Below, piece by piece: positions 30,759 to 32,065 of a stretch of DNA of 64,000 nucleotides. The position numbers and the translations under genes are program-made. The number at the start of each line of letters is the position of its first letter. Within the stretch, counting starts at the first letter, position 1. The notes below the pieces were generated by a model. That model was not told the origin of the DNA. It worked only from the letters and a program-made list of their open reading frames with translations, and did not search any database. The DNA lies in contig OX638353.1 in NCBI GenBank assembly GCA_951813255.1, positions 3,084,782-3,148,781 of the forward strand, read 5' to 3'. This DNA comes from an uncultured Dehalococcoidia bacterium. GTDB lineage: Bacteria > Chloroflexota > Dehalococcoidia > Lucifugimonadales > JAAXIE01.

Positions 30759-31028
30759 TCATTGTGCATTGAGGTCATCGATCAAACGAGCGACCTCCGC
30801 TAATTGGACGTCAGAGAGCTCCTGCAATCTGGCTGTCAGGTTGGACGGTACGCTCGCCGATTCATCCAGCCTATCTTGGACGTCATCGTAGTCTCCACTG
30901 GCTAGGCGTTCCTGCTCTTGCTGGGCCTCATGATCATCGGGAGCGTCGGGATGCCGGTCAGGGTCGATGAGTCGGAATATCTCTTCCTCATCATCGCCGC
31001 TTCCATATATGGACCTAATGCTGGTCAT
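30759..31028 (-). CDS. hypothetical hyper-acidic 89-aa protein coupled to the Panacea-domain gene
   Basis: ATG shares one nt with the upstream TAA (TAATG). About 24 Asp/Glu, 0 Lys, 7 Arg. The C-terminal LQELSDVQLAEVARLIDDL helix is reminiscent of addiction-module components. Confidence 0.45.
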   Translation of the reverse strand: MTSIRSIYGSGDDEEEIFRLIDPDRHPDAPDDHEAQQEQERLASGDYDDVQDRLDESASVPSNLTARLQELSDVQLAEVARLIDDLNAQ

Positions 31029-31492
31029 TATCCTTGCTGTTGTTCGATCAGCGCAGCGTAGTAGTCTCTGATAACGTGGTTGTGGATGATCTGCCTTCGC
31101 TTATCCCGTCGATAAGTCTGTTCCCACGGCGAGTTTTCTACGTGGGTCATCCGGGATAGGCGAGTCCCGTCAAGTTCCCCATATCGCTTCCAAACAACCC
31201 GAATCACTTTCTCTTCCTGATCACTGAAGGTGGTCTCCTCCGTCAAGATAGGCTCCGTGATCCGGTCTCCACCGTAGTGTTTCAGCTCGTGGTATAGTGC
31301 CCTGATGACTGGGCCATGTTGCCATGATTCGACGGCGTCTTGGAACAAAGGTCCATTGCCTAGCCCTAGCATCCATGCGTGGCAGAAGTACGTCAGCTTC
31401 TGTGCCTTCATGGGCGTGATGGGGGTCTCGTCTACTATAGATAACCGGATTAGTTTATCAGCGACTGCTAGGGCACTATGCCGCGCACCCAC
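31028..31492 (-). CDS. DUF4065 / Panacea-domain protein (SocA/GepA-like antitoxin-type)
   Basis: 154 aa from GTG with GGAGGTG RBS. ITPMKAQKLTYFCHAWMLGLGNGPLFQDAVESWQHGPVIRALYHELKHYG matches the DUF4065 core (KLxKLxYfa...fxAWxxGPV). Confidence 0.7.
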   Translation of the reverse strand: MGARHSALAVADKLIRLSIVDETPITPMKAQKLTYFCHAWMLGLGNGPLFQDAVESWQHGPVIRALYHELKHYGGDRITEPILTEETTFSDQEEKVIRVVWKRYGELDGTRLSRMTHVENSPWEQTYRRDKRRQIIHNHVIRDYYAALIEQQQG

Positions 31493-31652
31493 GGTGCACC
31501 TCCAAGGTCGGAGTGGCGCGATTGTACCACCGATAATCTGACGCGTCTAAGTTATGTTCAAACAGGTAACAGAAACTTAGGTCACTAACGGAAGCTACAC
31601 ACCACTCGTTACTATGGGTGAAGTTGGGCACCTTGGCAAGAGGAAAATGTCG

Positions 31653-31714: not shown

Positions 31715-32065
31715 ATGGCCCTCACCCCTGATGAAATTGCCCACACCGTGGTGGAGATAGCCTCCGACAAGCTGGCGGAGAATATCGTCATGCTGGATAT
31801 CCGGGGCATGACGACCTTTGCCGACTACTTCGTGATCCTGTCCGCGGGCAGCAGCCGGCAGGTCTCTGCTTTGCAGGAGGACTTGGAGAAGGGGATGAAG
31901 GATGCAGGGGTGCCCCTCCACCACCGTGAGGGCAGCGCCGCGTCGGGTTGGATGCTGCTGGACTTCAGCGATGTCATCGTCCACATCTTCGGCGAGGAAG
32001 AGCGGGAGCACTACCAGTTGGACCGGCTCTGGTCGGGAGCGCCACAGGTCGTTACTGTTCTATGA
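31715..32065 (+). CDS. rsfS: ribosome silencing factor RsfS
   Basis: 116 aa. DYFVILSAGSSRQVSALQEDL...GWMLLDFSDVIVHIFGEEEREHYQLDRLW. Confidence 0.85.
   Translation: MALTPDEIAHTVVEIASDKLAENIVMLDIRGMTTFADYFVILSAGSSRQVSALQEDLEKGMKDAGVPLHHREGSAASGWMLLDFSDVIVHIFGEEEREHYQLDRLWSGAPQVVTVL

Follow-up and report, generated by a model that had tools for sequence, protein, structure and literature searches.

A Panacea gene and its predicted coupled partner

The current analysis concerns a two-gene cassette within a 64,000 nucleotide (nt) stretch of contig OX638353.1 from an uncultured Dehalococcoidia bacterium (positions 3,084,782 to 3,148,781, forward strand; hereafter, the window). The cassette consists of a stand-alone Panacea (DUF4065) gene, panA, followed by an open reading frame (ORF) encoding a small hyper-acidic protein (Table 1). 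An initial annotation of this DNA had described a 154 amino acid (aa) ORF and an 89 aa ORF joined by a TAATG overlap at position 31028, and both ORFs lie exactly where it placed them. On the minus strand, the junction reads CAAGGATAATGACC, in which the TAA of panA and the ATG of the acidic ORF share base 31028 (a 1-base overlap), and panA is translationally coupled to the acidic ORF.

Table 1. Features of the panA cassette in the window and identity of its products and neighboring proteins to those of the relative L081
Feature	Position in window	Strand	Description	Basis	Identity to L081
panA	31028..31492	minus	154 aa, GTG start behind GGAGGTG; stand-alone Panacea/DUF4065, PF13274		80.5%
Hyper-acidic partner ORF	30759..31028	minus	89 aa, ATG start; no transmembrane segment		65%
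Predicted promoter of the cassette	31521..31550	minus	TTAGAC - 17 nt - TGgTACAAT, extended -10	promoter scan and conservation	
Shine-Dalgarno sequence of panA	31497..31503	minus	GGAGGTG, 4 nt before panA GTG	read from sequence	
Shine-Dalgarno-like sequence for the coupled acidic ORF	31031..31035	minus	AAGGA within panA 3' end	read from sequence	
Ndk					94%
RsfS					91%
MnmA					79%
RnhB					72%
YraN					67%

The expression signals of the cassette recur among its relatives. The promoter scan upstream of panA returned TAGACG-17-TACAAT plus TG, the AACTTAGAC...AGATTATCGGTGGTACAATCGCG block is the sole conserved part of the panA upstream spacer between the window and L081, and a TGnTACAAT box is also found upstream of panA in L001-L007 and L013. 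The Shine-Dalgarno sequence of panA is a strong one and is conserved in L081, and GAGGTG or GGAGG is present at the equivalent place in nearly all orthologous panA loci. Purine-rich GGAG/GAGG boxes lie 5-10 nt ahead of the acidic ORF start at other loci. No terminator-like site was found at the window cassette, and an Rfam scan in and around the pair returned nothing credible in the way of a non-coding RNA. An upstream 51 aa ORF (31476..31631, minus strand) was considered as a hidden toxin and rejected, because L081 shares nothing of that spacer but the promoter block; this ORF also has no family match in Pfam or NCBIfam. Separately, a palindrome confined to the group of species with the cassette between radA and moaE, ATACCAAATATGGTAT, is located downstream of the -10 box and ahead of the Shine-Dalgarno sequence, about 15-35 nt upstream of panA (L002:3966-3990; also L005 and L006). 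It may serve as an operator, although PanA has no DNA-binding domain.

PanA is a Panacea-only protein with a largely intact core

The 154 aa protein matches PF13274 (SocA_Panacea) with 70.6 bits (E 2.6e-19) against a cut-off of 25.7, and this profile match bears out the DUF4065 core that had been read from the sequence. It lacks an N-terminal HTH, PAD1 or ZBD domain and consists of Panacea only. Its AlphaFold2 model is of high confidence (pLDDT 94, pTM 0.91) and resembles Panacea-like phage proteins with a TM-score of about 0.7, whereas the sole meaningful match in the PDB is 7yk3_B from the DarTG complex (probability 0.92, E 0.09, TM-score 0.38-0.45). The latter chain is the C-terminal domain of DarG bound to DarT. 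It is the best PDB fold match of the PanA model, yet the match is weak, and the pair has neither a macrodomain nor, in the partner, an ADP-ribosyltransferase of the DarT kind. Neither PanA nor the acidic protein was matched by PADLOC.

The universal Panacea core is retained in PanA (K32, L33, Y35, H38, W40, E55, W57, G60-P61-V62, Y67, S113, T116, H117, P122 and W123), with the exception of position 59, which is H59 in the window and Y/F across the clade. Codon 59 (window 31316-31318, minus strand) specifies His in both the window (WQHGPV) and L081 (WKHGPV), and Tyr or Phe in the other aligned members shown. Residue 59 immediately precedes strand 2, like the position described for Y56 of the B. 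choladocola PanA, in which Y56A abolished neutralization (PMC10440598).

The acidic partner matches no described family

The 89 aa protein contains 15 Asp and 9 Glu residues, 7 Arg and no Lys, which agrees with the earlier count of about 24 acidic residues and no Lys and results in a net charge of -17.3 and a pI of 4.05; across its family, the net charge ranges from -14 to -26. Five residues are invariant (P23, D31, Y47, Q51 and E56), and the family signature is MSLPSxYGSxD(D/P)EEE(I/L)FRLxxPDx(H/L)P ... (D)YDDxQxxxDE ... LxxLSxExLAxVxR(L/F)I. In its layout, the N-terminus is disordered and carries SxYGSGDDEEE(I/L)FRLxDPDxHP, a helix with YDDxQ...DE follows and the C-terminus is an amphipathic helix; it is the disordered N-terminal motif that is best conserved. 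AlphaFold2 yields a non-compact model (pLDDT 73.7, pTM 0.32) in which residues 1-30 are of low confidence and helices span residues 31-43, 47-57, 64-69 and 73-88. The last of these exceeds a pLDDT of 90 and corresponds to the C-terminal helix anticipated from the letters alone. As modelled, this looks like a protein that folds on a partner.

Comparison with Pfam, NCBIfam, PADLOC, PHROG and PDB, upon which the newness of the family rests, yielded no match and no enzyme domain, in keeping with the earlier remark that the partner is less like a known toxin than an antitoxin or DNA mimic. An identity with DUF6627/PA2779 was rejected, as the scores were 16.5 against a cut-off of 27 and 17.4 against 40 bits and only 1 of 26 members matched. 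A transmembrane segment is likewise absent from the family: over 19-residue windows, Kyte-Doolittle hydropathy peaks at -0.26 to 1.18 in 26 members and at ≤1.13 in 35 more representatives, compared with 1.69-3.56 in 25 partners of the transmembrane type. No match to the acidic ORF was obtained by tblastn in 50,697 phage records.

Small hyper-acidic proteins that mimic nucleic acids or bind RNA polymerase are well known from phages, such as Ocr, Ugi, AcrIIA4 and T4 AsiA. These are proteins of 80-120 aa with a pI near 4 and a helical content fit to occupy basic DNA- or RNA-binding surfaces, and some, like AsiA, are toxic when expressed. The acidic protein is similar to them in size, pI and helical content. 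Its charge is also as expected of a DNA mimic, a class marked by a compact fold that displays carboxylates in an ordered array. It differs from them in having no sequence or fold match, a non-compact model and no phage match.

The NCBIfam model that PanA matches best is that of SocA (NF047745; E 1.1e-25), which raises the question of whether the pair could operate like SocAB, the type VI toxin-antitoxin (TA) system of Caulobacter. By that account, PanA would be a proteolytic adaptor delivering an acidic toxin to ClpXP, and the toxin would be kept low by constant degradation. The Panacea domain is common to SocA, the antitoxin-first order is the same, the partner has no recognizable domain in either case, and the conserved disordered N-terminus of the acidic protein could act as a degron or adaptor-binding tag. 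However, PanA scores just 90.3 bits against the SocA equivalog threshold of 190, neither ClpXP dependence nor clamp binding is indicated for the pair, the partner here matches no described family, and 9/9 PanAT pairs tested by Kurata et al. were neutralized without ClpXP or Lon (PMC8832971). We therefore consider a SocAB-like mode of action very unlikely.

The pair is conserved throughout a single clade

A word-based search with PanA retrieved 122 homologues of about 155 aa, mostly 55-81% identical, and 19 loci with PanA identities of 58-78% came from a scan in which each species was represented by one genome, after which identity falls sharply to ≤45%. All 19 loci are from metagenome-assembled genomes (MAGs) of Dehalococcoidia/Chloroflexota, and in 19/19 an ORF of 78-105 aa with 20-34 Asp/Glu residues starts at or beside the panA stop codon (ATGA, GTGA or TAATG), the overlaps or gaps at loci other than the window's being ≤10 nt. 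A hidden Markov model (HMM) built on these acidic ORFs matches just these 19 loci among 80 Panacea loci. Together with three further contigs (L081, PanA ~81%; L164, PanA 53%; and L166, which is frameshifted), an acidic ORF is found directly downstream in 22/22 loci with a PanA at least 53% identical, all of them from Dehalococcoidia/Chloroflexota and each a distinct species-level genome or contig. L165, with a PanA 44% identical, has another kind of partner, which places the limit of the acidic-partner clade between 46% and 53% PanA identity. The relationship also holds in the reverse direction, as every acidic-family match in the examined loci is located directly downstream of panA and many members share contigs with PanA matches. 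When 1.84 billion representative proteins were searched exhaustively with a profile, just 44 members of the acidic family were recovered (E <= 0.001), nearly all of 59-105 aa. The co-occurrence check suggested by the initial annotation has thus come out in favor of a genuine association.

Both genes are under purifying selection. The ratio of nonsynonymous to synonymous substitution (dN/dS) is ~0.11 for panA and ~0.29 for the acidic ORF where dS is measurable, synonymous sites being saturated in most pairs, and identity averages 65-67% among the PanAs compared with 41% among the acidic proteins. The distance matrices of the two are correlated (r=0.60), with 0/2000 Mantel permutations giving a value as high, as expected of two genes that co-diverge. 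GC-rich genomes give many spurious ORFs, and one could accordingly suppose that the acidic ORF is a chance open frame beside an orphan PanA. Its presence and coupling in 22/22 loci, its invariant residues, its dN/dS of ~0.29 despite saturated dS, its being called by independent gene finders and its 44 representatives among 1.84 billion proteins all speak to the contrary, and we give the idea practically no credence; the conservation data refute it. The acidic ORF is a real gene, to judge by its location downstream of every orthologous panA, its invariant residues and its dN/dS. There is also no third conserved gene common across lineages, just the two genes being shared. The suggestion that the cognate toxin had been lost is disfavored on this account, as well as by the purifying selection and co-divergence of both genes.

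Taken as a whole, the cassette is a self-contained two-gene unit specific to the Dehalococcoidia and equipped with its own predicted promoter. At the most divergent acidic-type locus, the last 4 nt of the acidic ORF are shared with a third ORF (L164:3279-3539; 86 aa, hydrophobic at the N-terminus), which was not seen in other loci.

A few copies depart from the intact arrangement. In the Dehalococcoidia MAG locus L018 (4001-4740), panA is a pseudogene with an in-frame TAG at codon 17, a TGA at codon 113 and the core substitutions W57C, Y59Q, P122L and H139D. Its acidic ORF is still open and keeps P23, D31, Y47, Q51 and E56, with a family HMM score of 61 bits versus 85-118 elsewhere. In L014 (4001-4546), PanA extends to 181 aa and the acidic ORF starts late, while both genes of L166 (2501-3662) are split by frameshifts; each of these may reflect assembly indels or decaying copies.

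The cassette occupies stable housekeeping sites

The gene order in the window is thiL-tsaE-tsaB-ndk, a divergent rsfS, panA, the acidic ORF, mnmA, rnhB and yraN, and the arrangement in L081 is identical, with tRNA_Me_trans Pfam families (MnmA) to the left of the pair and RsfS to the right. The position between mnmA and rsfS, already recognized in the initial annotation, is borne out at both ends (the flanking proteins are 79% and 91% identical to the MnmA and RsfS of L081), and it is common to two organisms with housekeeping proteins only 67-94% identical. Six other species (L002-L007) carry the pair between radA and moaE, with PanA 73-75% and RadA 74-79% identical, and a third group (L008, L010, L012, L014 and L016) has common flanks of another kind. 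Hence, the cassette occupies several housekeeping-gene sites, each of them stable over deep divergence. No empty mnmA-rsfS site was found, the metagenome scan having given only distant relatives (RsfS ≤62% identical).

The pair had also been described as lying in DNA of lower GC, and this is correct: its GC content is 0.537 versus 0.607 in the flanks. As a mark of recently acquired DNA, however, the observation does not hold, since the cassette is 4-16 points under its flanks in 17/17 loci measured (L001-L019 set, 4-kb flanks), including old sites. Recent horizontal transfer was rejected for this reason, and the GC dip is best viewed as a constant property of the cassette rather than as a sign of recent arrival. 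The deficit is also seen where the site of the cassette is old enough for synonymous sites to be saturated, and it could relate to expression, codon use or silencing.

Sister Panacea systems have membrane-type partners

A coupled ORF of 110-140 aa follows nearly every PanA that is 31-46% identical to that of the window, and several of these pairs are from Dehalococcoidia as well. The sister partners consist of an acidic or charged N-terminus, a strongly hydrophobic helix, WH(Y/L)(L/F)xPxxWxWLxxxQ and a second hydrophobic segment. The downstream ORFs of L020-L071 form a widespread family of PanA partners with two transmembrane segments, which has no Pfam match and ranges from Chloroflexota to Proteobacteria and Acidobacteriota. 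An annotated PanA/PanT pair of an E. coli phage is of the same build, with a PanA 35.5% identical to the window's and a 182 aa PanT comprising an acidic N-terminus of ~110 aa and two transmembrane helices. By position, the acidic ORF therefore fills the toxin slot of the closest PanA relatives, minus the membrane segment.

The known systems of this type pair a stand-alone PanA with a membrane-type PanT, as in Shiga toxin-producing E. coli (STEC) and phage (Kurata et al. 2022, Ernits et al. 2023). The window cassette resembles them in several respects: 1) a Panacea-only PanA of ~155 aa comes first, 2) a small coupled downstream partner has an acidic unstructured N-terminus and 3) the two genes form a self-contained cassette. 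It differs in others. No transmembrane segment is present in the ~60 family members examined, the partner is far more acidic and has no significant sequence relationship to those PanTs, and the cassette is vertically inherited at fixed housekeeping sites instead of being located on prophages or mobile elements. The pair had been called non-canonical at the outset. This is overstated for the gene order, as a leading PanA with its partner coupled behind it prevails among PanAT pairs (PMC8832971) and the nearest PanA relatives have the same layout. The partner, for its part, matches no known toxin family.

It is conceivable that the acidic ORF derives from a membrane-type PanT that lost its transmembrane helices, is non-toxic and is maintained to bind PanA, such as by serving as a decoy or as a regulator cross-talking with the transmembrane-type PanAT systems of the same genomes. 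Two genomes do encode both types (L014 and L021 in MAG S8_392, L016 and L037 in OY762251.1), and cross-talk between the pairs of a single genome may occur. In the sister partners, an acidic N-terminus and a transmembrane helix are followed by WxWLxxxQLxxVxxF. Homology was examined in four ways, using hhalign against the transmembrane family, against the E. coli phage PanT and with the first transmembrane segment excised, together with an HMM-versus-shuffle control. The only stretches aligned by hhalign occur in the same order in both families, EE(I/L)F...P..H with QIFKSAFEPSNH and LxxLSxEQLAxV with WxWLxxxQLxxV (in the longer form, LxxLSxEQLAxVxRF with WxWLxxxQLxxVxxF). Once the first transmembrane segment is excised, the alignment is collinear over 65 columns, though with weak statistics. 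None of the similarities is significant, however (probability 0.2-3.8%, P 0.011-0.27), the shuffle control gave a mean z of 0.81 with every score <8 bits, and strong purifying selection across at least 20 species points to a function of its own and not to a relic. The motifs are suggestive and collinear, but the derivation is not supported by these sequence comparisons, and we judge it distinctly unlikely.

Proposed interpretation as a PanAT-type module

The window pair has every computational attribute of a PanAT pair as defined by Kurata et al. (2022), for which genes must lie ≤100 nt apart on the same strand. These attributes are the domain, the spacing, the conservation, the absence of a longer operon and reciprocity, the last of which follows from the position of all acidic-family matches in the examined loci. 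A total of 88 partner clusters are known for PanAT and 41/88 are without a recognizable domain, so one more partner family would be unsurprising in itself. The largest partner cluster of Kurata et al., T1, includes a Chloroflexi pair.

Our preferred reading, held tentatively and at somewhat less than an even chance, is that the pair constitutes a PanAT-type module in which a new soluble acidic effector is neutralized by the binding of PanA. PanA would be made first, bind the disordered acidic N-terminus of the co-translated small protein and thereby hold it inactive. The small protein, occupying the PanT slot, would represent a new soluble, membrane-independent effector. Given the charge of -14 to -26 in its family and its helical C-terminal half, we infer that, upon release from PanA, the effector would most plausibly occupy a basic surface by which some host or phage protein binds nucleic acids. 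Binding between the two proteins, the assignment of growth inhibition to one of them, the target and a role in phage defense are likewise matters that we infer from the analysis.

This neutralization model is the most economical, because of the functional data for Panacea proteins, the structural parallel with DarG and the layout of the sister systems. Every experimentally characterized Panacea protein is a neutralizer, with stand-alone Panacea acting by direct binding (PMC8832971, PMC10440598), and for the single stand-alone PanA:PanT pair that has been dissected, a contact between Panacea and the unstructured N-terminus of the toxin is predicted (PMC10440598). The best conserved part of the acidic family is a disordered N-terminal motif of just this sort. 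PanA also comes first, with its partner coupled downstream, in the most frequent arrangement of PanAT genes (943/1268 pairs; PMC8832971). Furthermore, a 2026 paper describes DUF4065 proteins as homologues of the C-terminal inhibitor domain by which DarG binds DarT in 7YK3 (PMC13621843). The only solved structure with the fold of PanA is an inhibitor domain, which we count in favor of neutralization. The joint occurrence of the two genes in 22/22 loci with no third conserved gene, their correlated distance matrices and the purifying selection on both likewise speak for the model.

Several observations weigh against this interpretation: 1) the composition of the partner is that of an antitoxin or inhibitor and is unlike a validated PanT, given its lack of a transmembrane segment or enzyme fold, its charge of about -17 and its pTM of 0.32, 2) the L018 locus, with its panA pseudogene and open acidic ORF, favors a partner that is not lethal without PanA, and so the rival readings of a reversed polarity or a non-toxic derivative, 3) the long fixation at single housekeeping sites and a PanA changing as slowly as a housekeeping protein (RadA, MnmA) are unlike typical mobile addiction modules and 4) three PanAs are toxic themselves, while eight predicted PanTs are non-toxic in E. 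coli (Kurata et al., PMC8832971). The second point is hard to square with a potent PanA-dependent toxin, unless missense changes or the loss of translational coupling had disarmed the toxin first.

Some of these same observations would be accounted for if the polarity were reversed or the pair were regulatory, with PanA as the effector or a sensor/adaptor and the acidic disordered protein as its inhibitor, masking PanA until degraded or titrated. An acidic, disordered and faster-evolving partner (dN/dS 0.29 versus ~0.11; 41% versus 65-67% identity) is typical of antitoxins, and the order of decay in L018 is as expected if PanA is harmful. Three PanAs are toxic alone in E. coli (PMC8832971), and a primarily sensory role for Panacea has been put forward by Ernits et al. 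(PMC10440598). On the other hand, a Panacea protein is not known to act as the toxin in any pair, and PanA has neither catalytic nor membrane features beyond the standard fold. Sisters of the same layout carry downstream membrane-type partners, and PanTs of that kind have proved toxic in other PanAT pairs (PMC8832971); a PanA better conserved than its partner is normal for PanAT, in which partners are swapped (PMC8832971). L018 is also a single case, and with its acidic ORF scoring 61 instead of 85-118 bits, the whole module may be decaying. We consider a reversed polarity unlikely, but a credible contender.

Whichever polarity applies, certain qualities set the pair apart: the hyper-acidic, soluble and disordered nature of the partner, the strict restriction to a single clade and the long vertical maintenance. 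These raise a broader possibility, which we likewise hold to be unlikely, that the pair is the first Panacea system with inverted or non-TA roles (PanA as the effector or sensor and the acidic protein as the inhibitor), or else that it contains a soluble nucleic-acid-mimic effector of a sort unseen among TA toxins. In either event, it would be a quasi-housekeeping unit instead of a mobile addiction cassette.

Among antitoxin domains, Panacea best exemplifies a "universal" one, and the question of what it senses, or does apart from binding, is a current one. The Dehalococcoidia clade presents a clean natural case, in which a Panacea-only protein is accompanied by a partner having neither the membrane helices nor the enzyme fold used so far to explain PanT toxicity, with the pair constrained to the degree of housekeeping genes and staying at fixed sites in the chromosome. 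Toxicity of the acidic protein would define a soluble mode of action new among PanTs; a lack of toxicity would mean that Panacea pairs can be other than classical TA modules. Either outcome would bear directly on the hypothesis of Panacea as a sensor. The pair is small (154 + 89 aa) and easily testable, and it adds a motif-defined protein family to the poorly annotated Dehalococcoidia.

Other observations at the mnmA-rsfS locus

In a distant relative (L158:2734-3081), the mnmA-rsfS junction has a different 115 aa ORF in place of the Panacea pair, the product of which has a coiled-coil and then a C-terminus that may be winged-helix-like. Conservation of the rsfS-ndk-tsaB-tsaE-thiL block extends well outside the acidic-partner clade, and in the window, the 3' ends of rsfS (plus strand) and ndk (minus strand) overlap convergently by 14 nt (32052-32065).

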